23,015 nt of DNA from positions 1 to 23,015 of the forward strand of contig JBKHVI010000045.1 of the NCBI GenBank assembly GCA_046570105.1. The letters are read 5' to 3'. Positions 1 to 20,793 of the stretch are shown here, in pieces; positions within the stretch are counted from its first letter, which is position 1; the number at the start of each line of letters is the position of its first letter. Source of the stretch: Bacteriovoracia bacterium. GTDB taxonomy: Bacteria > Bdellovibrionota > Bacteriovoracia > Bacteriovoracales > Bacteriovoracaceae. Under the pieces are notes generated by a model. The model was not told the DNA's origin and ran no database searches. It saw only the letters and a program-made list of their open reading frames with translations. The position numbers were made by a program, and so were the translations under genes.

Positions 1-2018
1 TGGGGACCGATTAAAGTGAATTCCACTGGGAAGCCACGACCAGAAGCTGAGAAGCCCCCTTGAGAGGTATCTTGCACAAAGACTTTTCCACCTTTAATTT
101 CTTTGAACTCTTTACGGTATTGATTGAGTAAATCCTTCATGACTGGACGATTTTTCTTATCCACCAAGGTCACAAACAAGTTAGCTGTATTGGATTCACT
201 ACCGCCGAAACCACCGATTGCAACAAAGTAGCGCTTCACTTCAGGCTTCTTTGAGAGACTCTCTTCTACTTGTTTCACCACATTATCTGTGAATTCAAGG
301 CTCGATCCTTCTGCTGTTTTCACGCGCATCAGGAAAAGTCCCGTATCCTGCGCCGGCACAAACTCTTTAGGGATTTGTGTCACTAAAAAGAAAGTTGAGA
401 TAAAAAAGATGGCGGAAAGACTTAAGACTTTCACGCGATTGTTCAGCACAAATTCTAACCAACGTTTATAGATAGCAATAATCTTATCAAAAATACGATC
501 GACAAAAGCACCTAACTTACTGGTGCGACCAGGAGGATCCATAAATTGTGAACAACGCATCGGAGTCAGTGTGAGGGCCTCTAGCAGAGACAGCCCGACT
601 GCCACTGAAATCGTGACACCAAATTGGAAAAAGTACTTACCGATAATCCCATCCATCAAAGCAACAGGAATAAAAATCGCCATGATGGCAACCGTCGCCG
701 CAATCGCCGCGAAGGTAATCTCATTGGCCCCTTTAAAGGAGGCTTCGCGACGAGACTTCCCTTCTTCGTGATGGCGATAAATATTCTCCAAAACCATGAT
801 GGCATCATCCACCACGATACCAATCGCCAAAGAAAGACCTAAGAGCGAGAAAGTATTGAGCGTAAAGCCCAGCCAGCTTAAAATAATGAAAGCACCCAAA
901 ATCGAAGTCGGGATCGCTAAAATAACGTTAATGGTGGCGGCAAAAGATCCTAAGAACAACCAACACACAATCGCCGTCAGAATCGCCGACATGGTCATGG
1001 TGAAAATCAACTCGTGGATTGATTCTTCAATAAATTGAGTCGAATCGAAGTTAATCCCGATCTCAGTTCCAGCAGGGAGCGTCTTTTGCAGCTCTGCCAT
1101 TTTCTTTTTAACACCATCAGCAACGGCCACAGTGTTAGAGCCTCGTTGTTTACGAACACCCATACCAACGGCATTCTTACCATTAACCCGCGATATACGA
1201 CGAACATCGGCCAGGCCATCTTCCACTTCAGCAACTTCACCGAGGAAGATAGGGCTAAAATTGGCACTGCCACCTCTACGAATAAGTGGCAACTTCTTAA
1301 ATTCTTCAACACTACTCGCTTCACCTAGAGTACGAACATTTCGTTCACGGGTAGCATCCTCTAGATAGCCTGAGGGAGCTTCTTGGTGCTCCGATTGAAT
1401 CGCCGCAATCACATCCGTCACAGTCATTTGAAACTGATTGAGTTTTTTTGACGAAACCCAAACACGCAAATTTGGATCAACGTAGCCGCCTAGAAAAACA
1501 TCCGCTACACCTGGAACCGTTTGAATTTTATCTCGCAATTGATCGCGTACATAGGCCATCAAAGTTTTACGATCCATCGTCTCCGAAGAAACTCCCAACC
1601 ACATAATGGGACGATCATCGGGGTTCACTTTGGTAATGACTGGTGGGTCAATATCATCAGGAAGATTTCGTTGGGCCTGATTAATCTTGGCCTCAATCTC
1701 GGAGACCGCCACATCGATATCTTTATCGAGACCAAACTCAACTGAAATATTGGCACTTCCCAAACGCGCGTTTGAAGTCACAGACTTTACACCCTCTACT
1801 GCTACAACAGCACTCTCAATGGGATCAACCACATCAAGCTCCATCACTTCCGGGGCCGCCCCCTCGTAAGTCACGGAGATGTTCACCATCGGGAAGTCCA
1901 CATCAGGTAACTGACTGACACCCATTCGAGTAAAAGCGAGATAACCAAAAACCATCAGGGCAAGCATCAGCATCCAGGCAAAGACCGGACGGCGAATGGA
2001 GAGATCGGATAAGCTCAT
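1..2018 (-). CDS. RND efflux transporter permease, AcrB/AcrD/AcrF family (5' part; continues beyond the left edge)
   Basis: Absent from the ORF track because it has no stop inside the window. Manual translation from the ATG at 2018-2016 gives MSLSDLSIRRPVFAWMLMLALMVFGYLAFTRMGVSQLPDVDFPMVNISVTYEGAAPEVMELDVVDPIE..., with TM4 GLSLAIGIVVDDAIMVLENIYRH and later LTLTPMRCS and KEFVPAQDTG, all typical RND motifs. The ATG overlaps the TolC stop (ATGA). Confidence 0.96.
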   Translation of the reverse strand, partial: MSLSDLSIRRPVFAWMLMLALMVFGYLAFTRMGVSQLPDVDFPMVNISVTYEGAAPEVMELDVVDPIESAVVAVEGVKSVTSNARLGSANISVEFGLDKDIDVAVSEIEAKINQAQRNLPDDIDPPVITKVNPDDRPIMWLGVSSETMDRKTLMAYVRDQLRDKIQTVPGVADVFLGGYVDPNLRVWVSSKKLNQFQMTVTDVIAAIQSEHQEAPSGYLEDATRERNVRTLGEASSVEEFKKLPLIRRGGSANFSPIFLGEVAEVEDGLADVRRISRVNGKNAVGMGVRKQRGSNTVAVADGVKKKMAELQKTLPAGTEIGINFDSTQFIEESIHELIFTMTMSAILTAIVCWLFLGSFAATINVILAIPTSILGAFIILSWLGFTLNTFSLLGLSLAIGIVVDDAIMVLENIYRHHEEGKSRREASFKGANEITFAAIAATVAIMAIFIPVALMDGIIGKYFFQFGVTISVAVGLSLLEALTLTPMRCSQFMDPPGRTSKLGAFVDRIFDKIIAIYKRWLEFVLNNRVKVLSLSAIFFISTFFLVTQIPKEFVPAQDTGLFLMRVKTAEGSSLEFTDNVVKQVEESLSKKPEVKRYFVAIGGFGGSESNTANLFVTLVDKKNRPVMKDLLNQYRKEFKEIKGGKVFVQDTSQGGFSASGRGFPVEFTLIGP

Positions 2019-3247
2019 GGAGTCACTCCTGTGGCCAAATTTAGTTGTAGAGCGAGCATCTCTTTTTCTAAGAGAGCGCGCTCGTAGCCACGTTTAGTAT
2101 CGATATATTGGTTGAGAGATTGCAAAACATCGAGGTTCGTTACCAAACCATAACGATAATCTTTTTTATTTTCTTCATAGGTGGCTTTTGACTTACCAAA
2201 AGCATTTTTAAGATCTTTCACCACCGCTTCTAACGCCTTGCTATTCTGCCAAAGAATACGGATATCACGTTCAGATTCGCGCTTGGTGCGCTCAAGGGTT
2301 AAGACTGCTTCTCGTTTGCGCTCGGTCGCTTCACGGGTGCTCGCTGCCACCGTGCCGCCTTGGTAAAGCGGAAGTGTCGCCACCACCCCAATATCCCATT
2401 CCGATTCAGCGAGGATACCAGTACGCTCAAAATAATAGTTGGCGGTAAAATCAAGTGTCGGATGATGGCCCGCTTTGGCAATCGTCGTGAGTTTTTCATT
2501 TAACAGTACTTCTTCCCCACGCGCCTTCACATCAGGGCGATCTTGGATTTTTATAATGTAATCATTGAGTGTTGCCACTTGCCCTTCCCCTGTAGGGAGC
2601 GCACCAAAACTCATTTTATGAGGTGCACCTGCCAAAAAATCCACTTGTTCCTGAGCTGCCGCCAGAGCACTTTCTGCGCGGGCCACATCAGCATCTACGG
2701 AAGCCAACTGAGCTTCGGCCTGGAGTAGCTCGCCTTTTCTTGAACGACCGACTTTCACGCGCTCACGGATTTCTTTCACCCGCTCGTCACTAAAATCTCG
2801 CAACTGACGAACATTCACTAAATCATTCTGCGCCATCCACAAATTGTAATAGGCATCTCCGGTTTGAGACCAAAGACCCAATCCTTCCTGCTCACGCAGA
2901 CGCTTTTGCACATCGATATCAATTTTAGCAAATGAGAACGCTGCCCAAGTGCCACCTCGATAGATAGGTTGCGCTAAATTAATCAAAGCTGAGTACTGAT
3001 TAATCCTTCTGAACGCATCACGAGGCCCTGGTAAAGGATCGACCTCTTGATAGTTATAGCGGGCGGTAACTGAGGGGCGCAAACTTCCCACCGCTTGAGT
3101 TTTACGCTCTTCTGCTTGCAGCGTTCGCGACTCGGTGATGGCAATCGTTTCAGAGCGCTTCTCAGCGAGCGCATGAAGATCTTTTAAACCAGTTGGAGTA
3201 GCAGCACTGGCAGCTACGGGAATCAAGCAACACAACAACCATCTCAT
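2015..3247 (-). CDS. TolC family outer membrane efflux protein
   Basis: Signal peptide, two OEP-like repeats (LINLAQPIYRGG; VVATLPLYQGG; YRYGLVTNLDVLQS) and coiled-coil segments. ATGA overlaps couple it to both MarR and the RND gene. Confidence 0.93.
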   Translation of the reverse strand: MRWLLCCLIPVAASAATPTGLKDLHALAEKRSETIAITESRTLQAEERKTQAVGSLRPSVTARYNYQEVDPLPGPRDAFRRINQYSALINLAQPIYRGGTWAAFSFAKIDIDVQKRLREQEGLGLWSQTGDAYYNLWMAQNDLVNVRQLRDFSDERVKEIRERVKVGRSRKGELLQAEAQLASVDADVARAESALAAAQEQVDFLAGAPHKMSFGALPTGEGQVATLNDYIIKIQDRPDVKARGEEVLLNEKLTTIAKAGHHPTLDFTANYYFERTGILAESEWDIGVVATLPLYQGGTVAASTREATERKREAVLTLERTKRESERDIRILWQNSKALEAVVKDLKNAFGKSKATYEENKKDYRYGLVTNLDVLQSLNQYIDTKRGYERALLEKEMLALQLNLATGVTP

Positions 3248-3678
3248 GCAACAACCTCGCCTCGATTCGATGAAAATACTTTTTGTAAGAGTAAGAGCGC
3301 TTCTAAAACTTGTTTCTGTTCTTTATTATTTAAGTCATCCAAATGAATTTGCATGTTTTTTTCAACTTGCGTACGCACTCGTCTCACGACAGTTTGACCT
3401 GCGCGAGTCAGTGTCAGTTTGACGTGGCGGCGATCAATGGGGTTCACTTCACGATGAAGTAATTCTCTTTTAACTAAAACTTCCACCATCTTAGACATAG
3501 CAGCGGCGGTGACTCCCAAATGGCGCGCCAAAAAGCACGATGATTCATGGCCAACGTTAACAAAAAAGAGCACGCGAAATTGATTGATACTTAAACCATC
3601 CGGCAAACCCGAATGGAGTTCTTTGCGCCATTCGCGCATGACTGAAGGAATTGTGTCTAAAAGATGAGTCGCTAGCAT
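3244..3678 (-). CDS. MarR family transcriptional regulator
   Basis: 144 aa with GLSINQFRVL, HTH LARHLGVTAAAMSKMVEVLVKRELL and wing motif DRRHVKLTLTRAG. First gene of the efflux operon. Confidence 0.94.
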   Translation of the reverse strand: MLATHLLDTIPSVMREWRKELHSGLPDGLSINQFRVLFFVNVGHESSCFLARHLGVTAAAMSKMVEVLVKRELLHREVNPIDRRHVKLTLTRAGQTVVRRVRTQVEKNMQIHLDDLNNKEQKQVLEALLLLQKVFSSNRGEVVA

Positions 3679-7797: not shown

Positions 7798-9842
<2,045 letters not shown>

Positions 9843-11512: not shown

Positions 11513-11593
11513 CTTAATTTAAGATTAATTGCCGTGAACTTCTCCCTTCACTCGACATACAATATGAGAACTAACTTCCTACAAGGTGAACTT

Positions 11594-12076
11594 ATGACTT
11601 TTCCACAAGAACTCAAAGACCACAGCAAAGACAACTACATTCAAAAATGTATCTACATGGTGAATTTGTTCAAAGATAAGAACCAAGCACTATGGGAAGA
11701 ACTCAAGGCCAAGCTTGAAACCATCAAGCCTGAAGATTCATGGAATTTCTTTCACGAGTTAGTGGAAGCTTATAAGCCTTACGCCAACGCAACTGCCATG
11801 GTGACTGAGGCTAAGGCCAGTGCCAAAAAAGCTGTAAAAAATGTCGTCAAGAAGGCCAAAGAAGTAGAAAAGAAAGTCGCTAAGACTGTTGCTAAGGCCG
11901 TTGCTAAAAAACCGGCCAAGAAAGCCGCAAAGAAAGTAGCGAAAAAAGCTCCTGCTAAAAAAGCCGCCAAGAAAGTAGCGAAGAAAGTAGCGAAGAAGGT
12001 AGCGAAGAAAGCTCCGGCCAAGAAAGCCGCTGCAAAAAAAGTTGTAAAGAAGAAAGCTGCTAAGAAAAAGAAGTAA
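11594..12076 (+). CDS. Histone H1-like (Lys/Ala/Pro-rich) putative nucleoid protein with an unknown N-terminal helical domain
   Basis: AAGGTG SD before the ATG at 11594. The C-terminal ~90 aa consist of KKVA/PAKKAA repeats, and a strong terminator follows. Confidence 0.82.
   Translation: MTFPQELKDHSKDNYIQKCIYMVNLFKDKNQALWEELKAKLETIKPEDSWNFFHELVEAYKPYANATAMVTEAKASAKKAVKNVVKKAKEVEKKVAKTVAKAVAKKPAKKAAKKVAKKAPAKKAAKKVAKKVAKKVAKKAPAKKAAAKKVVKKKAAKKKK
11969..12011 (+). repeat. 12-bp in-frame tandem repeat (AAGAAAGTAGCG, about 3.5 copies; KKVA)
   Basis: Copies at 11969, 11981 and 11993 (one mismatch), plus a partial copy at 12005. Confidence 0.85.
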
Positions 12077-12635: not shown

Positions 12636-14321
12636 TTAGAAGTAGTGAACTAGTCCGGCGAGAGTCTCAAAGTGAGTCTTTTCTGACTGAAAACGTGACA
12701 GGCGTACGCCCCAATCAGAATTGAAACTCCAAGCAAAGGAAACTTCAACTGTTAGGCGCTGATTAACACCCCAGAGATGCTTCACATCTGTCAAAACTTT
12801 CCAACTCTCCCCTTTAATCCCTAATAAACTGCGCGCCCCAAGATTCATGACGGCCCCATCGGGTGAATCTCCCAAGGCCTCACCCATCAACATAAGACTG
12901 GCAATCAAGCGATCACTGCCTAAGCTGTAACCAATGCCTGCCGAACCTGCTGCTGTTAAGGATTGTTTTGCGAATTCGCGTGGGGCCTTAAGCCCAAACT
13001 GAGTAAACCAACTTAAATCCCAGCCTAGATCGTTATAAGGAGAGAGTGAAATCACTTCGGCGAGAGTGAATTCACGCACGAACACTTTCTCTTGATGCTC
13101 GAGGCTCATTCTCAATACATCCAAAGTACTCCATGGTTCATAACCCAGATCCTGATCCAGTAGATCATGCTGGGCCAAGCGTACTTCGAGCCTCTCACGC
13201 TTCTCTCCCGCACTTAAAATTGCTCTTCTGAGACCATGGCCCTCATGTGGACTATTATTAGCTCTCGGTACAATGACCTCTGAACTTGCACGCGAACTCT
13301 GCGCTCGCAGGCTCAATTGCTGATGATAATCTTTTTCCTCTAAGGCCTTGAGTTTCTTCAAGCGACTCTTGAGTTGATAGTAGGCGAGCTTTTTATCCTG
13401 CTCTTCCTCAGGAGTTTGACTCTCTCCTCGCGCTAAATATTGACGACGCAAAGAGGGCCTGAATTGAGGTTCACCTAACAGTTCGGCATCTCGTAAAATA
13501 CGCACGGTCTCAGCAGGAATAATGTAAAACGGTGCAGTTTGCGAGAGTTTCAGTTTCGGATTGGCGACCTCTAACAAACGTAGGATTTGCCACGAGCAGT
13601 TTTCATCAAAAAACCAATAATCAAACCAAGTGCTCGCCTCCATCTCCCACATATGCGCCAAGAGAATATCGATTCCCTCAGGTGACATTTTAAGGGAATA
13701 CTCCCACAGATCACGGGCCTCACCATGGTTGTACTCATTCACTTTGATAAAATAGGGGGCCAAGGAATAATGCCCTTGATAACCACCAAAGACTCCTAAC
13801 AGGGCAAACTCCACTCCTCCATCACTGCCAGTGGTGGCGGCAAAGTTAACGGCATAATCGAGCAAATCTTTGCCAACTCCAGGACCTTTAAGTCTTAAAA
13901 ATGTATGCCCAAACATCGAGGCCGGATTGTTAGGATAGGCCGAAGCAAAAACCAGCGAGAGTTCTGTGACCGGCAGTCCTTGGCGCCATTCTTTATAGGC
14001 CTCACATTTCACTTCAGGAAACTTCAAACCCAAATCACGCTCCAAGATGAGTTTCCTTGCGGGAAACACACAGGCCGCAGGGGTTTTGAGAACACCCATT
14101 AATTTGTGTGGATCTTTCAGTGCCTCAATGGTGGCGGCTAATTCAGCTGCAGAATTTGTTTTGCCATCTTTTGAGAGAAAGAATCCTGGACCATCAGCTT
14201 CGCTTTTATAACCAGTCCAGGTTTTTTGATAGTGAATGAGATTAAGCCATTGAGCTGAGTGAGCGAACTCACTGGCCTGGGTGGAATGAATCCACCCAGT
14301 CAGAAAGAGAAAAAGAAACAA
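12636..14321 (-). CDS. DUF4105 (Lnb N-terminal-like, papain/NlpC-P60-like) domain protein with a probable C-terminal outer-membrane beta-strand domain
   Basis: QWLNLIHY, CVFPAR, LVFASAYPNNPASMFGHTFLR, E-x-RDLWEY and YWFFDENCS. The C-terminal third has alternating beta-strand patterns and ends in aromatic VHYF. TTG start 1 nt after the DUF3015 stop. Confidence 0.86.
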   Translation of the reverse strand: MFLFLFLTGWIHSTQASEFAHSAQWLNLIHYQKTWTGYKSEADGPGFFLSKDGKTNSAAELAATIEALKDPHKLMGVLKTPAACVFPARKLILERDLGLKFPEVKCEAYKEWRQGLPVTELSLVFASAYPNNPASMFGHTFLRLKGPGVGKDLLDYAVNFAATTGSDGGVEFALLGVFGGYQGHYSLAPYFIKVNEYNHGEARDLWEYSLKMSPEGIDILLAHMWEMEASTWFDYWFFDENCSWQILRLLEVANPKLKLSQTAPFYIIPAETVRILRDAELLGEPQFRPSLRRQYLARGESQTPEEEQDKKLAYYQLKSRLKKLKALEEKDYHQQLSLRAQSSRASSEVIVPRANNSPHEGHGLRRAILSAGEKRERLEVRLAQHDLLDQDLGYEPWSTLDVLRMSLEHQEKVFVREFTLAEVISLSPYNDLGWDLSWFTQFGLKAPREFAKQSLTAAGSAGIGYSLGSDRLIASLMLMGEALGDSPDGAVMNLGARSLLGIKGESWKVLTDVKHLWGVNQRLTVEVSFAWSFNSDWGVRLSRFQSEKTHFETLAGLVHYF

Positions 14322-14322
14322 G

Positions 14323-14811
14323 CTAGATCATGGCCATATTGTCGCAACTCTGAGCAATTTGAGTGCTCTTGAATGAACGAGAGAGGCCTTGTAAAAGCGC
14401 TTTAGCATCGGTTTTTTCAGAGGCGAATAGCTCGCCGTAAGAATTTTTCGCCCATTGAGTGAATTCAGCTTGAGCTGCTGGTGTGCAACCGAGCACTTGA
14501 GCAAAAGTTGCGAGGTATTCGCCTTGGCCCATCGCCATTTCGTGACGAAGTTCTGGAAGGTTCGCCTCAGCATAATAAACCGGATACATATCACGCTTCA
14601 CAATGCTGTGCTGTGAACATCCTGAAGTTCCTGTGGTGATACCGAAAAGCTGCGAAGAAAAACTATGGTTCGTTGTGGCACGAAAAAGTGCTGAGACAAT
14701 TGAGTTTTGCTTCCAAATCATTGTGCCCAAACCACAACCCATACTGGAGTCGGCCTTGGCGTGAAGACTCAAACCCATAGCGAATAAAACGAAAGCAATA
14801 AGAAGGCGCAT
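14323..14811 (-). CDS. DUF3015 family protein
   Basis: Signal peptide, GCGLG, TTN...SQLFGITTGTSGC and EMAMGQGEYLATFAQVLGC. The ATG at 14811 has AAGGAG at suitable spacing. Confidence 0.9.
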   Translation of the reverse strand: MRLLIAFVLFAMGLSLHAKADSSMGCGLGTMIWKQNSIVSALFRATTNHSFSSQLFGITTGTSGCSQHSIVKRDMYPVYYAEANLPELRHEMAMGQGEYLATFAQVLGCTPAAQAEFTQWAKNSYGELFASEKTDAKALLQGLSRSFKSTQIAQSCDNMAMI

Positions 14812-14974
14812 TTTCACTCCTTGAAAAATTTACACTATTATCTCTTACTGGAGCAAAAGCGCAATTTCCTGACTAAGTCACTTCCCTCTTAAACCCTGTC
14901 AGTTTTTCAATTCCTACTCTCAGAATAAGTTCTTTATGGGATCACACTCACTCTTATAACTTCAGGAGAACGGT

Positions 14975-15562
14975 ATGCTTATTCCCGTCTTTCTCTCATT
15001 GGCCTTGCAATCCCTTCTTCCCGGATCAAATGCCCTGGCCTTTGATCAAATGATTAAGGTTGCCGATGGCAGCTGGGCCGTGTGCCAGACTGCAGAAGAT
15101 TCTTTCCATCACATGCATGGAACCTATCGCATGGATGTGGTCGGTCCCCAGATCAAGAGTGATTGGCTCGTTTTTACGGTAAAAGTTGAGTTTCTTGCTT
15201 GCAAGAAAAACAGTTCCGGCGCCTGGGGATTCACACCCGTTCCTACTCACGCCCCTTTGCGCTACGAACTAGAAAACGAGCAAGTTACGGTTCATACCAA
15301 AGATGTTTTCTTGACCCTCTCTAAGGGAAGCCAGTTCATTTCAAGCTTGGCCTGGGATCCAGGAAGTCGTTTAGTGGCGATCGGAATCAATGAGGCCTTA
15401 AGTGAAGCAGAGCTTGAAAAATTTAAGGCCGGCGATGAGATTGAGACCAGTGTCGATTTTCAACTTGAGAAAAATATCTTGATCGTTGGTAAAGATGGAG
15501 CGGCCAGTGATGAGCGCTTCTCATTTGGAACTCATAAGCTCAGCTTTAAACTTAAAAGGTAG
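14975..15562 (+). CDS. Hypothetical secreted protein, first gene of the second efflux operon
   Basis: CAGGAG SD, signal peptide, two Cys and an HHMH motif. Only 3 nt separate it from the adaptor gene. Confidence 0.8.
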   Translation: MLIPVFLSLALQSLLPGSNALAFDQMIKVADGSWAVCQTAEDSFHHMHGTYRMDVVGPQIKSDWLVFTVKVEFLACKKNSSGAWGFTPVPTHAPLRYELENEQVTVHTKDVFLTLSKGSQFISSLAWDPGSRLVAIGINEALSEAELEKFKAGDEIETSVDFQLEKNILIVGKDGAASDERFSFGTHKLSFKLKR

Positions 15563-15565
15563 ATT

Positions 15566-16396
15566 ATGCTTCGCTCAGCTTTCCTTCTGACAATTATTTT
15601 CCAAGCGAGTTTAAGTTTTGCTGCAACGGCGCCTGAAGTCTTTACGCAAAAGCTTGCGCTCACTCCAGTTAAGCAGACGCTACTTTTCCCCGCGCTGGTT
15701 AAAAGCCGTGTTGAATCCAATATCAAAGCGGACGGTGAACTGATTGTCGTCAAAGGACATGTGACTCTCGGTCAGCGAGTCAAAAAGGGAGACATCCTCT
15801 TAGAACTTAAACAACAGGACACATCACAGAATTTTCATAATCGCATGCTACGCGCACCTGTGGCGGGTGTGGTCGCTTCTCTTTATGTGAATGAAGGACA
15901 ATACGTCGCTCGCGGTGAAGACCTCGTGCTTATTAATGAACCAGAAAATCTTTATTTAAAGCTTGAAATGCCGGCCGCTCATCATGCGGAAGTCAAAGTT
16001 GGCCTTAAAGCACGTGGTCCTTCGAAAACTCCCTTTGAAGCAAAAATCTCAGGAGTGGGAGCAGTCTTAGATGCCGCTCTGGGGACAGTGCCCGTTGAAG
16101 CTGAATTTGATAACAAAATGAGTTTTGTCCCAGGAACTATTCTTAATCTAGAAATCGTTCTCGCCGAGCAAGAAAAACTTTTGGTTCCTGAAAATGCGCT
16201 CTATTATGCTGGCGAAAAGATCTTCCTCCCCTTGCTAGAAAACAGCAAAGTTAAAAAAGTTGAGATCACGACAGCACCTGCGAGCAAAGGCCAAGTGGAA
16301 ATCATTACTGGTGCCAAGTTAGGTGACGAAGCGATTGTAGGAGCGGGTGAGTTTTTAAAAGATGGCGACAAAGTTCGCATAGCTAAGAAAAATTAA
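15566..16396 (+). CDS. RND periplasmic adaptor (MFP), short form lacking the alpha-hairpin
   Basis: Lipoyl halves GQRVKKGDILLEL and LRAPVAGVVASLYVNEGQYVARGEDL, and membrane-proximal motifs LLVPENAL and VEIITGAKLGDEAIVGAGEFLKDGDKV. Confidence 0.9.
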   Translation: MLRSAFLLTIIFQASLSFAATAPEVFTQKLALTPVKQTLLFPALVKSRVESNIKADGELIVVKGHVTLGQRVKKGDILLELKQQDTSQNFHNRMLRAPVAGVVASLYVNEGQYVARGEDLVLINEPENLYLKLEMPAAHHAEVKVGLKARGPSKTPFEAKISGVGAVLDAALGTVPVEAEFDNKMSFVPGTILNLEIVLAEQEKLLVPENALYYAGEKIFLPLLENSKVKKVEITTAPASKGQVEIITGAKLGDEAIVGAGEFLKDGDKVRIAKKN

Positions 16397-19300
16397 ATGC
16401 TCTCACTCGGTTTAAAAAATCCATTCAGGCTTTTTGTTTTGCTCATTTTAGTGGCCGGTGTTGGTATTTGGTCTGGAATGGAGCTACCGGTTTCACTCTA
16501 TCCGCAAACGTCGAAACCTGTTGTACGTATGTCGGTTATTTATGCTGGACTCTCATCGGAAGAGTTTATCCGTAAATATGGTGCGACGATTGAATACCAA
16601 CTTGAAAATATCAAAAACACCGGGCTTAAACTCGAAAGTGTCAAGGCCAACTACGGCCATACCAATGTTGACTACACCGTTACCTATGATTGGCATATTC
16701 CTTTCGCCCAAGCGCTCAAAGAAGTCCAAACTGTCGCCGCTGGCGCGAAAGGTTTTTTACCTCGTGAAAGCGCTGATTCAATCTCCGTCTGGCAGTGGAA
16801 TGAGAATGCTGGTTTTCTGGCGTTGAGTTTTTACGGCAAACGCCAGACCTTAAATGAGCTCTATAATTTACTCGATCCTATCCTCTCTCCTGGTCTTAAA
16901 AATATTCCCGATGCCGAAGAAGCACTGCTTTGGAACCCTGAATCTCAAGAAGTTAGCATCTCACTTTATCCTGAGAAGATGGTGGTCTATGGCCTCCTTC
17001 CAGGAGAGATCTATCGCAGTCTTGATGCTGCACTTCCCTCGTTAACAGGTGGAGAGCTGCGTATCGGCCAAAAAGGTGCCCACCTCCAAATCCCTACTGC
17101 ACTAGTGAGCAAAGAGACGCTGGAAAATCATGTCGTGGCCCTGCAAGATGGCAAACGCATTACACTTAAAGATATTGCCGAGGTCACCATCGGCCGATCG
17201 GAGAAACAAAGTCGCGCCTTTAAAACAGATGGCAAAGAGTCTCTTATTCTTTTTGCTAATCCAAAGAGTGGTGCCAACGTCAAACGCATGGCCGAAGATG
17301 TCTTGGCCCATGTGAAAAAAAATGAAAAGCTTTTGCCAGAAGGTGTGGAGTATAAGGTTCTCGTTGATCCTTCCGAATTTATTCGCAACTCGATTCAAAA
17401 CCTGATGAAAGATGTGATCTTAGCGGCCTTCCTTGCCGTCTTAGTTCTCTTTTTATTTATCGGTAACTTCAAAAACGTTGCCACTGCTGCACTAGAAATC
17501 CCTTTGAGCATGATTGTTGCTTTTATAGTTATGAAAGCGACAGATATGAATCTCAATCTCATCTCGCTAGGTGGACTCGCGCTGGCCGCCGGCATGAATG
17601 TGGATGCCTCTGTAGTGGTGATGGAGAATATTTTTAGGCGTCAGGCCGAATGGCTTAAAAACAACTCAGGCGAGATGAATTGGCAGGAGCGCTTTGATAT
17701 TATCTTGTCTGCCGTCAGAGAAGTTGCTGCTCCTATTTTTCTATCGATTGCCACCACATTAATTGTTTTTATCCCTCTGGCCATGACCACCGATCTCACC
17801 AACGCAATTCTAGGTGATCTCGCACGCGCGGTGATTTACTCCCATGCTGTTTCCGGGTTTGTTGCTATCTTTGTCGTCCCTACTATTCGCTTAGTCTTGA
17901 TGAAAGATGCCCGCATGAAGCCTGCTCCCCTTGCTCCAGTTATGCGTGTCTTAGAAAATAAGTATCTTTTGCTTATGGAGAAAGGTTTAGATTTTCCTAA
18001 ATTGAAATGGGTGGCGATTTCTCTTCCCATCATCCTCGCAGGACTACTTTTGTGGACGATCGTTCCTAGGCTTCCCAAAGAAATTGTCGGAACTCCCGAC
18101 ACGGACTGGATTTTCATGGCGGTGACAGCGCCTCAATCAAGCGCTCCACGTCAGATGGAAAATATCCTGCAAGAAGTAGAGTCGAAGGCGATGAAAGTGG
18201 TGGGAACAAAAGTCGCCTACACCTTTATGCAGATGCACAATAAGACCAACGGCAACGTCATGCTTCGTTTGAAAGATAAAAGCGACATGAAATCCACGGT
18301 TAAAACGCTACAAGAACTTTTACAAAATACCCCTGATCAATTTTTCTATGTCGATGCTTGGAATCCAGCAGAACTTCCTCTACCGCAAATGAATCATCTC
18401 GAACTTCGTCTGACAGGATCAAAACACGAAGATATTCGCCAGAGTGTCTCTCGTCTTAAATATTTCTTGAATGAGCAAGGCGACTACAAACGCATCAACA
18501 CCACTCCTTCTGAGCCACGCTCGAAAATCTTGCGTTTCATTCCTCATGAGCATCTTTGGAGTCAGTTGCAACTTCCCATGATGGATATTCTCGATCTCAC
18601 GATCTATACCCAAAATGGTAAATCTCCGGGCTCCATGATGGTCGATGGCAAGATGACTCCTCTCACAATTGCCTTCGCGGATGAGCGCTACAAAGATCCG
18701 GAACTCTTAGGGGCCTACCCTCTTAAGATGAACAGCAAAGTCATCCCACTCTCGGCCTTAGGTGAATTTGAATTGGCCGATGTGGCCTCAAATATTTACC
18801 GTCAAGATGGCCGTGAACAGGCGCTGATCACCTCAACGCTTGATAAAAATGATGAAGATAAATGGGAAGCTTTGAGTGTGCGTTACGAAAAGCTCGTAAA
18901 AGATAACACCGCTCAAATCACTGCCGGTAAAGACGTTACCATCGAAGCGGTCAGACCCAAAAAAGAACTCTTCGCCGCTTTGGCCCAGTTAAAGAACTCG
19001 TTGTTGATTTCGCTCATTTTGATTGCTCTCGTGCTTTGGCTCCAGTTTCAATCACTGCGCTATGTTTCAATTATCATGCTCACTATCCCTCTAGGTTTTA
19101 TCGGAGCACTGATCTCCTTATTTGCCTTTCAATCTACGCTCTCACTTAATTCTGCTTTGGGAATAATTCTGCTCAATGGAATTGCCGTGAATAACGCTAT
19201 TCTGTTAGTTGAAGTCTACACTCAACTTCTCGAGAAAGGATTAAGTTCAAGAGATGCACTTCGTGAAACTTGTCGCTCACGCTTACGTCCGATCCTCATC

Positions 19301-19549
19301 ACATCACTCACCACTATGTTAGGTATGTTACCCATCGCGATGGGCTGGGGAGATGGCGGTAAAATTCTTCAACCACTAGGCATCGTAGTGGCGTTTGGTC
19401 TTTTCTTCTCGACACTGATGGCGCTCTTTATTGTTCCTTGGGTGCTTTACTCTCCTAAGGCCAGTAAGTTAACAACTCACGACAATACAGATCTTAAGAG
19501 CACAGCGATCAAGAATCTCTCTTCGTCTGAGGAGATTTCTCTCCAATGA
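16397..19549 (+). CDS. RND efflux transporter permease (divergent AcrB/AcrD/AcrF family)
   Basis: 1050 aa with ELPVSLYPQ, LNLISLGGLALAAGMNVDASVVVMENIFR, GIAVNNAILLVE, RLRPILITSLTTMLGMLPIA and LQPLGIVVAFGLFFSTL. Starts directly after the adaptor stop. Confidence 0.95.
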   Translation: MLSLGLKNPFRLFVLLILVAGVGIWSGMELPVSLYPQTSKPVVRMSVIYAGLSSEEFIRKYGATIEYQLENIKNTGLKLESVKANYGHTNVDYTVTYDWHIPFAQALKEVQTVAAGAKGFLPRESADSISVWQWNENAGFLALSFYGKRQTLNELYNLLDPILSPGLKNIPDAEEALLWNPESQEVSISLYPEKMVVYGLLPGEIYRSLDAALPSLTGGELRIGQKGAHLQIPTALVSKETLENHVVALQDGKRITLKDIAEVTIGRSEKQSRAFKTDGKESLILFANPKSGANVKRMAEDVLAHVKKNEKLLPEGVEYKVLVDPSEFIRNSIQNLMKDVILAAFLAVLVLFLFIGNFKNVATAALEIPLSMIVAFIVMKATDMNLNLISLGGLALAAGMNVDASVVVMENIFRRQAEWLKNNSGEMNWQERFDIILSAVREVAAPIFLSIATTLIVFIPLAMTTDLTNAILGDLARAVIYSHAVSGFVAIFVVPTIRLVLMKDARMKPAPLAPVMRVLENKYLLLMEKGLDFPKLKWVAISLPIILAGLLLWTIVPRLPKEIVGTPDTDWIFMAVTAPQSSAPRQMENILQEVESKAMKVVGTKVAYTFMQMHNKTNGNVMLRLKDKSDMKSTVKTLQELLQNTPDQFFYVDAWNPAELPLPQMNHLELRLTGSKHEDIRQSVSRLKYFLNEQGDYKRINTTPSEPRSKILRFIPHEHLWSQLQLPMMDILDLTIYTQNGKSPGSMMVDGKMTPLTIAFADERYKDPELLGAYPLKMNSKVIPLSALGEFELADVASNIYRQDGREQALITSTLDKNDEDKWEALSVRYEKLVKDNTAQITAGKDVTIEAVRPKKELFAALAQLKNSLLISLILIALVLWLQFQSLRYVSIIMLTIPLGFIGALISLFAFQSTLSLNSALGIILLNGIAVNNAILLVEVYTQLLEKGLSSRDALRETCRSRLRPILITSLTTMLGMLPIAMGWGDGGKILQPLGIVVAFGLFFSTLMALFIVPWVLYSPKASKLTTHDNTDLKSTAIKNLSSSEEISLQ

Positions 19550-20793
19550 AATCTCTCTGCCTACTCTTGCTGGTTAGTTTTTCAGTCAATGCGGCCACTG
19601 AGTTTCGTGGCATTTTAAAAGAATTTCTTAAAAACGACCCTACTTATCAAGAAGTCGAACTCAACACACCTGTCTACGATGCTCTCTACTATCAAGGCCT
19701 CTCGAAACTCATTATCCCGCGAGTCACTTTGAGCTACGGGCAAAATGAACAAAAAAACAACGTCTCACTCGCCACCAATGTGGATAAATTTCAGTTCGGC
19801 TCTCTGAATGCTTCATTAGATATTTTCAGTTTTGGCCGTGACTGGAACGTCTTTCAGGCCAATCGTTATGCCGAAAAAGCGCAATTGATGCGCGTAGAAT
19901 CGCAACTTATGATCCGTGAAGCCGAAATTGCAGATCTAGTGCTCGGATATCTACGAGAAGCAAAGAATGTTGAAATATTAAATCGACTCGTCAAAATGAA
20001 AGAAGAAGCCCGTCAGCTCTCTTTTAAAAGGTTGCAGAGAGGCATTATGTCTCAGCAGGATTATCAAAAAGTTCAGCTGGATGCTTCGAACGCTCGCGCA
20101 GAATTATTTGTTGCCGAGCAAAGGCTCAATACACTCACCGCTCAGTTTAGAAGTTTTGCCGTTAAGACTCTCCCCACCCAATACCCGTGGGAAAATGATC
20201 TCAGCGAAGCACGCTTGAATGAATTGATGACTTTGAGTACTGATGTCTCCGAATTGCCGCAATTTAAAGAGGCCTTTCTCAATGCAGAATCGGCCGCCTA
20301 TGAATCCAACGCCGCTCTTGCCAATATGTGGGGCGATGTGAGCTTTACTTTCACGCGCTCTTATTATGATTTTCCAGATGCTGAGTTATGGGAGTGGCGA
20401 ACTTCTCTTGTTTATACACTTCCCCTCTTTGATCAGTTTGATCAATCAGTGACTCGTAAACGTGAATTGGCGGAGAGACAGGCACAAGAGATTCGTCAGA
20501 AGTTTGAAAAACGTCGTGTGCAAGAAGTGCTTTTGGCAGAAAATAATAATCTAAAAATTTCTTGGAAAAACTGGCTGGAGCGCAAAGAAGCGTTAAAGAT
20601 CTCGAACAAACTCTACCAATCCACCTTAGGTCAATTTAACCAAGGCAAACTTTCGGTCAACGAACTTTTTGTGGATCAAGACAGATTGCTTCGTACTGAG
20701 CAGATCGCTAACGAAGCACTCCATCAGCTGCACACCTCGACACTCGCCTTCTGTCACTCCCGCGGCCGCTCTTATGTCAAAGGCTGCTTCTAG
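19546..20793 (+). CDS. TolC family outer membrane protein (divergent)
   Basis: Signal peptide and two OEP-like repeats (ASLDIFSFG...LQRGIMSQQDY; YTLPLFD...FNQGKLSVNEL). ATGA overlap with the RND gene. Confidence 0.86.
   Translation: MKSLCLLLLVSFSVNAATEFRGILKEFLKNDPTYQEVELNTPVYDALYYQGLSKLIIPRVTLSYGQNEQKNNVSLATNVDKFQFGSLNASLDIFSFGRDWNVFQANRYAEKAQLMRVESQLMIREAEIADLVLGYLREAKNVEILNRLVKMKEEARQLSFKRLQRGIMSQQDYQKVQLDASNARAELFVAEQRLNTLTAQFRSFAVKTLPTQYPWENDLSEARLNELMTLSTDVSELPQFKEAFLNAESAAYESNAALANMWGDVSFTFTRSYYDFPDAELWEWRTSLVYTLPLFDQFDQSVTRKRELAERQAQEIRQKFEKRRVQEVLLAENNNLKISWKNWLERKEALKISNKLYQSTLGQFNQGKLSVNELFVDQDRLLRTEQIANEALHQLHTSTLAFCHSRGRSYVKGCF

Follow-up and report, generated by a model that had tools for sequence, protein, structure and literature searches.

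The gene at positions 15566-16396 (plus strand) of the window—the whole 23,015-nt stretch of Bacteriovoracia DNA analysed here—encodes a 276-aa RND periplasmic adaptor that matches TIGR01730, has no alpha-hairpin in its AF2 model and finds its top fold match in BesA. Together with the RND transporter and the TolC-type outer membrane factor (OMF) encoded behind it, this BesA-type adaptor likely forms a shortened tripartite efflux pump. While the hairpin-less architecture itself is already known from BesA and Legionella, a phylum-wide hairpin-less clade, its probable lack of a membrane anchor and the recurrent fusion of RND and OMF are new. The clade also shows hairpin loss to be a widespread, repeated design that extends beyond spirochetes. 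It supplies dozens of diverse environmental operons in which the adaptor is probably soluble and RND and OMF are in part naturally fused, opening the question of hairpin-less docking to cryo-EM without Borrelia work.

A short loop in place of the hairpin

Canonical adaptors of the AcrA/MexA type combine an alpha-helical hairpin, located between the two lipoyl halves, with an inner-membrane anchor in the form of a lipid-bearing cysteine or a transmembrane (TM) helix. The window protein scored 120.3 bits against TIGR01730 (RND periplasmic adaptor, MFP; curated cut-off 94.9) and, in keeping with membership of this family, its gene adjoins those of an RND transporter and OMF. It comprises membrane-proximal, beta-barrel and lipoyl domains only. 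An in-frame stop codon lies 6 nt 5' of its ATG, so an N-terminal extension is impossible. No alpha-hairpin of the canonical kind separates the lipoyl halves: GDILLEL (residues 75-81) is joined to LRAP (95-98) by 13 residues (82-94), close to the ~12 counted in an earlier, sequence-only reading of this DNA, whose 276 aa and absence of cysteine are likewise borne out by the open reading frame. The span from G75 to P98 measures 24 residues; its counterpart is 90 residues long in AcrA and MdtA of E. coli, and 67 in CusB.

An AF2 model built from 25 close homologues (pLDDT 86.5 overall; 76 for the block containing the loop) placed strands at residues 77-83 and 93-96 according to DSSP, with no helix between them. 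A nine-residue loop (residues 84-92; 15815-15841, plus strand) is thus predicted in place of the hairpin, in agreement with the alignment columns of 56 operon adaptors and a gap-free alignment to BesA. Foldseek returned eight BesA chains on top (TM 0.67-0.74), as opposed to 0.34-0.54 for hairpin-bearing adaptors, and VIA-align gave BesA a Z of 19.4 (rmsd 3.7 Å, 248 residues), followed by an entry with Z 15.8 and rmsd 7.8. All three BesA structures (4KKS, 4KKT and 4KKU) lead both searches. In addition, a 131-sequence family profile aligned to BesA positions 26-282 with a gap-free loop (E 1.5e-36). The BesA-like architecture that the sequence-only reading had proposed is supported by fold and profile alike.

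Could the short linker be an artefact, that is, an assembly deletion or a decayed gene copy? Broken copies do exist: in the close relative L002 (2145-2887) the adaptor gene is frameshifted and ~84 bp are missing, and in G167 it is split. Yet these breaks either miss the loop region or touch just its far edge, and neither would restore a hairpin. Contigs from two other studies, moreover, span 15344-16228 and 15254-19630 with 0 gaps, independently covering the loop, and the short linker is kept in 24/24 close homologues at 50-65% identity. The same 24-residue span recurs in 166/174 top homologues and in all adaptors aligned from phylum operons. We consider an artefact extremely improbable. The hairpin-free model, the gap-free independent contigs and the short-linked homologues also leave standing what the sequence-only reading had claimed on these points, and the model-based evidence confirms the missing hairpin as a real architecture. 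The frameshifted or split adaptors of L002 (2145-2887) and L100, both in close relatives, reflect decay or assembly error.

The N-terminus was examined with respect to an anchor. Residues 1-19 (15566-15622, plus strand; MLRSAFLLTIIFQASLSFA) read as a signal-peptidase-I leader by sequence, hydropathy and Cys count, with one basic residue (Arg), a hydrophobic core of about eight residues, an S-F-A end, and neither a lipobox nor a TM-length helix. Since domain strands begin as early as residue 24, no room is left for a tether after the S-F-A end. At 1.61, the best 19-residue hydropathy of the leader falls short of that of the MdtA TM anchor (2.43), and the protein contains 0 Cys. With the hydrophobic core this short and no cysteine to lipidate, neither type of inner-membrane anchor is apparent. 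We infer that the leader is cleaved by signal peptidase I, as the sequence-only reading had supposed from its SFA-A ending, and that the mature adaptor is probably soluble in the periplasm rather than membrane-tethered.

The same tendency runs through the phylum. Operon N-termini, scored by hydropathy and a lipobox pattern that misses non-consensus lipoboxes (54/60 parsed), mostly end in an A-x-A-like site, and the pattern matched none of the 54. Exceptions are L102 and L126, with a Cys after the hydrophobic core, and L044, which looks TM-anchored; among the homologues, a handful (e.g. P0146, P0155, P0178, P0187 and P0217) look lipoprotein-like by eye. Adaptors are described as anchored by a TM helix or lipid in a review (PMC4446572), and delipidated AcrA as functional in PMC8277102. 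A missing anchor would hence be unusual, yet poses no mechanistic bar. The sequence-only reading's claim of a missing anchor agrees with the absent cysteine and the short core, but since delipidated AcrA works, nothing forbidding follows from it.

The operon, its partners and its distribution

The operon order is adaptor-RND-OMF; no nucleotide separates the adaptor stop from the RND start codon, and the OMF gene overlaps the RND stop by 4 nt. The 1050-aa RND transporter (16397-19549, plus strand; PF00873) forms a subfamily of its own in an alignment with AcrB, MdtC and CusA and in the tree; all named NCBIfam RND models stay below cut-off. A metal transporter of the HME type is not indicated, as TIGR00914 gives 321 bits against a cut-off of 701 and the tree sets the protein apart from CusA/CzcA. 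Nor does it carry the full HAE-1 (AcrB-type) relay of D407, D408, K940, R971 and T978. In 57/57 family RNDs the equivalents of D407, E414, R971 and T978 are invariant, while that of D408 is A or G and that of K940 is A, N or S; the single TM4 aspartate, D403 in the window (AcrB D407 equivalent; codon 17603-17605, plus strand), is D in all 57. The relay sites of the window RND map to 17603-17608 and 19190-19195; TM4 has a single Asp there, and a K940 equivalent is missing. By these alignments, the family has a putatively reduced proton relay, common to spirochete-type RNDs. AcrB depends on D408 and K940, so that energy coupling by an RND devoid of both equivalents is only putative.

The 415-aa OMF (19546-20793, plus strand; PF02321) was assigned by its model (pLDDT 93.4), which adopts a standard TolC fold (TM ~0.8 and Z ~29 to TolC/OprM/CusC); phmmer against PDB sequences retrieved no OMF, and the fold search alone did. 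The equivalent of TolC Y362 is F in 52/56 OMFs, and neither R nor D ranks among the five most frequent residues where TolC has R367 and D374. CusC, too, has no R367 equivalent, so this gate loss is not specific. The C-terminus is short, ending soon after helix 8, and harbors a Cys pair in 50/56 OMFs (window 20750-20790), likely a disulfide that would close the short equatorial tail. Neither partner is lengthened: the RND docking domains measure 100 (DN) versus 105 residues in AcrB and 81 (DC) versus 91, with no insertion, and OMF helices H3-H4 and H7-H8 measure 107 and 113 versus 110 and 113 in TolC. These lengths rule out a compensating extension in RND or OMF.

A profile search for the adaptor across Bdellovibrionota genomes returned a match in 107/401 at E ≤ 1e-10, and in ~73/401 the match starts by profile position 50 and runs unbroken through the loop. 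The dedicated OMF family occurs in 68/401 genomes, largely those with the adaptor family. The nearest Atlas clusters are mostly from Bdellovibrionota, and L002 (Bacteriovoracaceae) is a near-identical locus. Of the three other genomes of the window's genus, two gave no adaptor match, and what matched in the third was partial and of the hairpin type; with its absence from genus-mates, the operon is patchy. A pattern scan of genome contigs gave just 2 loci. We fetched 61 loci around adaptor or OMF matches, and among loci selected in this way the order is always adaptor-RND-OMF, with the adaptor directly before the RND in 60 (the other is cut by a contig start), an RND in all 61 and an OMF after it in 58. 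Two of the remaining three are cut by contig ends. In the third, L037 (G237), the hairpin-less adaptor and RND are followed by a tRNA synthetase gene rather than an OMF, and the dedicated OMF family was not found in genome G237 at E ≤ 1e-12.

The loop is as constant as the gene order. The 174 top homologues, whose ranking favours collinear, hairpin-less matches, divide into the 166 with a span of 24, four hairpin-bearing proteins, two fragments and two with spans of 21-22; among the adaptors aligned from phylum operons, the window's included, 56/56 have a span of 24. A motif D-P-x-[YF]-x-[YF] occupies the loop in ~95% of these 56 (D85 in 54; P86, F/Y88 and F/Y90 in 53 each), and mean loop entropy is 1.66 bits versus a protein median of 2.12. 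Constant span, conserved motif and low entropy point to a surface loop under selection. The window's own loop deviates at T86 and Q88, keeping D85 and F90, and its subclade has likewise diverged; the motif is therefore not strictly required.

RND and OMF share one reading frame in 16/61 loci (L040, L047, L048, L051, L052, L055, L092, L096, L100, L104, L106, L108, L110, L111, L114 and L118). At the junction, a hydrophobic signal-like segment is found in 12/16 extracts; the other four extracts were wrongly delimited. On the RND tree, the trait requires 8 changes, at least 6 of them forced by starred branches. Because the junction keeps a signal-like segment, the fusions are probably cleaved, fixing stoichiometry rather than contact, and we rejected them as proof of direct RND-OMF contact. 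They are candidate signal-peptidase-cleaved polyproteins, gained or lost repeatedly.

With respect to the surroundings of the operon, no conserved flanking gene or regulator was found in 22 loci read widely. A scan for promoters and terminators gave counts near chance (7 vs 7.6; 10 vs 6.4), and RNA coverage amounted to one run with two short RND pieces, the adaptor being uncovered. Directly upstream of the adaptor, a secreted 195-aa protein with no family match is encoded (14975-15562, plus strand), in frame with the adaptor and separated from it by TAG plus one codon. Only the near-identical locus L002 shares this position. The gene has a paralogue on contig C17 and homologues in 16/101 genomes of the family, those in G133, G206 and G297 lying far from the adaptor gene. 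With its upstream position unconserved and its homologues unlinked, it was rejected as a pump partner. Elsewhere in the window, a DUF3015 gene and then a Lnb_N/DUF7840/DUF7843 gene occupy the minus strand (12636-14817), and by eye, 7798-9800 looks like a pair of glutathione-dependent formaldehyde dehydrogenase and S-formylglutathione hydrolase genes and 11534-12076 like a Lys/Ala-rich histone-like protein. A close operon in L001 (528-7910) is directly preceded by genes that by eye appear fatty-acid-desaturase-like and Rieske-like, a hint of lipid-like cargo in that genome only.

The genome, 87.8% complete, encodes five AcrB/CzcA-type RNDs and one TIGR01730 match over cut-off, the window adaptor; no normal adaptor gene adjoins the other four RNDs. 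Three of these (contigs C8 and C25, and window 3-2018) directly follow an OMF, and the one on C21 follows a 185-aa His-rich ORF. The window locus is a minus-strand MarR-OMF-RND operon (3-3678) with no adaptor between, its RND cut by the contig end (3-2018). Orthologues of this second RND have an OMF directly upstream in 29/30 loci, for which ~450 bp downstream are visible, and none of the five loci read with 1.5 kb on each side has an adaptor beside the RND. Five relatives were examined: four (93-100% complete) encode 4-5 RNDs each with no TIGR01730 match beside them, and the fifth has one canonical operon. The C8 locus (L132) is an OMF-CzcA operon and the C25 locus (L133) an OMF(523 aa)-RND-TetR operon, both with no adaptor gene; the latter layout recurs in G178, G034, G074, G018 and G279. 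A cluster on C30 (15642-20020) encodes a 570-aa HlyD-like adaptor fusion with no RND or ABC pump adjoining.

The His-rich, secreted 185-aa ORF lies between OMF and CzcA (L131:2246-2800; C21:4745-5299). Small ORFs occur at this site in 26/30 CzcA loci, and 18/30 match adaptor profiles at E < 1e-3. For the 185-aa ORF, hhalign against the hairpin-less profile returned 0.6% probability and Pfam/NCBIfam no adaptor family, arguing against an adaptor remnant; CzcB_C/RND-MFP_C clusters came up in the Atlas at no more than 0.88-0.89. As a lead, the ORF may be a remnant that has kept the membrane-proximal domain only. It is tempting, if still tentative and in our estimate somewhat short of even, to generalize that hairpin-free RND pumps are a lineage rule in Bdellovibrionota, graded from a soluble hairpin-less adaptor, as in the window pump, where RND and OMF are often made as a single cleavable polyprotein, through a membrane-proximal remnant to no adaptor. 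If true, pumps could be completed in several ways, of which the tip-to-tip hairpin tube is just one, and the short ones would bridge the periplasm where it narrows locally, in a docking mode absent from structures.

How the shortened pump might assemble

Pumps of known structure have the RND bound by the membrane-proximal and barrel domains of the adaptor; its barrel and lipoyl domains are arranged in rings, and its hairpins build a tube that meets TolC tip to tip (PMC8773123). The lipoyl domain makes no transporter contact (PMC8277102). The AcrA hairpin is 47 Å long (PMC3807786). With the hairpin tube gone and nothing lengthened, the pump would be shorter by about the hairpin length and have the lipoyl ring on top, in line with the earlier view that it must assemble differently.

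By analogy with these structures, the membrane-proximal and beta-barrel domains of six adaptors would clamp the RND trimer and so keep the adaptors in position with no need of a lipid, and the lipoyl domains would form a ring atop the RND funnel. This ring and the invariant-length D-P-x-[YF]-x-[YF] loop may seat the six helical OMF tips and seal the duct, replacing the ~47 Å tube. A dedicated OMF would need little unlocking, as the D153-R367 gate pair and D374 ring of TolC are not kept. Efflux would likely be proton-driven through a reduced relay of one TM4 Asp and the R971 and T978 equivalents, and the cargo, if anything can be said of it, would most likely be small compounds of a hydrophobic or amphiphilic kind, not metals.

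The central step, the OMF sitting on the lipoyl ring through the conserved loop, is evenly poised in our judgement. A contact between lipoyl domain and exit duct was proposed for BesA by Greene 2013 (PMC3807786). Loop conservation, a dedicated OMF with nearly the same distribution and the unlengthened RND and OMF favor it; against it stand the window and subclade loops, which do not have the full motif, and the adaptor-free OMF-RND operons of relatives. A span of 24 in Legionella, together with an unrelated loop and a different RND clade, further implies that this length may simply be what folds best and have nothing to do with docking. Direct RND-TolC contact, as put forward in the sequence-only reading, stands as one of two options, with lipoyl-ring docking fitting the conserved loop at least as well. 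Its idea of another partner found no support in the genomes: the three genes abut, and their flanks differ between loci.

In the direct arrangement, akin to the Bunikis/Greene model of BesABC, the OMF docks straight on the RND funnel and the adaptor serves as a side clamp or activator only. Adaptor-free OMF-RND operons are common (29/30 second-RND loci; four near-complete relatives) and favor direct RND-OMF contact in this lineage; to these add the RND-OMF fusions in 16/61 loci and AcrB-TolC cross-links formed without AcrA (PMC4446572). However, a hexameric lipoyl ring would intervene between funnel and OMF, the sampled adaptor-free RNDs belong to clades other than that of the window RND, the turns at the top of the RND funnel are only modestly conserved, and the fusions, being probably cleaved polyproteins, would set stoichiometry, not contact. 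On balance we hold this arrangement to be unlikely, though a serious contender.

Less probable again is an unsealed route, by which RND and adaptor release cargo into the periplasm and an always-open OMF lets it diffuse out. The missing TolC gate residues of the OMF family would suit such a route, as would a BesC described as wider and ungated (PMC2279261 and PMC4446572), the absence of lengthening in any partner, and L037 with no OMF gene after its RND. A physical complex would better explain why the genes are tightly coupled, have an OMF family of their own and fuse repeatedly, though, and an unsealed route would give little reason for conserving the lipoyl domain and loop. That the missing hairpin is supplied by a separate protein, or borrowed from an adaptor encoded elsewhere, is very unlikely. 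For BesA, Greene 2013 had to leave room for a factor of this kind (PMC3807786), the genome is 87.8% complete, and a HlyD-type adaptor sits in an ABC/OMF cluster of its own. Nevertheless, no gene lies between the three, the flanks of the 22 widely read loci share no gene, the 195-aa gene upstream has no link to the operon in other genomes, and the window adaptor is the sole TIGR01730 match over cut-off in the genome. We thus retain a pump with its OMF seated on the lipoyl ring as the working proposal.

Relation to BesABC and other known pumps

BesA of the Borrelia burgdorferi BesABC pump likewise has three domains, no hairpin and a nine-residue loop (PMC3807786; PMC2279261), with a Pro and an aromatic in register with the family loop at 17-19% overall identity to the window adaptor. 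Adaptors of Treponema, Spirochaetales and Omnitrophica came up in a search with the family profile, each having a span of 24, and the register of an acidic residue, Pro, three variable positions and an aromatic is also seen in spirochete and Omnitrophica-type adaptors. BesC, like the window OMF, is short-tailed and ends shortly past helix 8 (PMC2279261). The RNDs beside BesA-like adaptors of spirochetes have, as the window RND does, a single Asp in TM4 and no K940 (14/14). The two systems differ in other respects: BesA is a lipoprotein (Cys26; PMC3807786), whereas the window adaptor has no Cys to lipidate; Treponema-type relatives mostly carry TM anchors or lipoboxes, as opposed to the mostly signal-peptidase-I-like leaders of the window clade; the Bes gene order is OMF-adaptor-RND rather than adaptor-RND-OMF; and RND-OMF fusion recurs in the window clade, unlike in BesABC.

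A phylogeny, as called for in the sequence-only reading, was built with Treponema-type relatives included and BesA and BesB themselves left out of the adaptor and RND trees. With the loop removed, the window adaptors form a distinct, well-supported clade (35 rows, SH-aLRT 99-100) apart from a spirochete-type clade (16 rows, 95-96), the two being separate and not sisters in the free tree. Constraining them to a single origin gave AU p values of 0.478 for the adaptors and 0.582 for the RNDs, the joined RND tree being 4.2 log units better, and thus did not reject a shared ancestry. The Legionella adaptor weakens the case for reading equal loop length as a sign that the family and BesA descend from one ancestor.

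Hairpin-less adaptors have been reported in Treponema, Spirochaeta and, rarely, proteobacteria such as Legionella (Greene 2013, PMC3807786); the BesA-like solution outside spirochetes that the sequence-only reading pointed to had thus been published before. Neither Bdellovibrio nor Bacteriovorax is among the hairpin-less cases in the main text or supplement of that study (PMC3807786). A literature search with narrow terms and few subscription journals found nothing on Bdellovibrionota RND pumps that lack the hairpin or the whole adaptor, on RND-OMF fusions or on an AlphaFold model of BesABC. The Legionella plasmid adaptor (L241:5390-6313; span 24) and Afipia IhpB (NCBIfam NF045680; L240:5276-6253; span 21) both lie in OMF-adaptor-RND operons, and differ from the window family in loop sequence. 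Their RNDs belong to the CusA/CzcA group, far from the window RND, and to judge from the sequences, these hairpin losses are probably independent of the window clade.

Compared with canonical pumps, the window adaptor is 66 residues shorter than AcrA at the hairpin and has no lipid anchor, and the window pump is devoid of the D408 and K940 equivalents and the TolC gate residues Y362, R367 and D374. What it shares with AcrAB-TolC, MexAB-OprM and MdtABC are the RND, adaptor and OMF families and their folds; as in canonical HAE-1 pumps, the periplasmic domains of its RND and the helices of its OMF are of the usual length, and the equivalents of D407, E414, R971 and T978 are kept in its RND.
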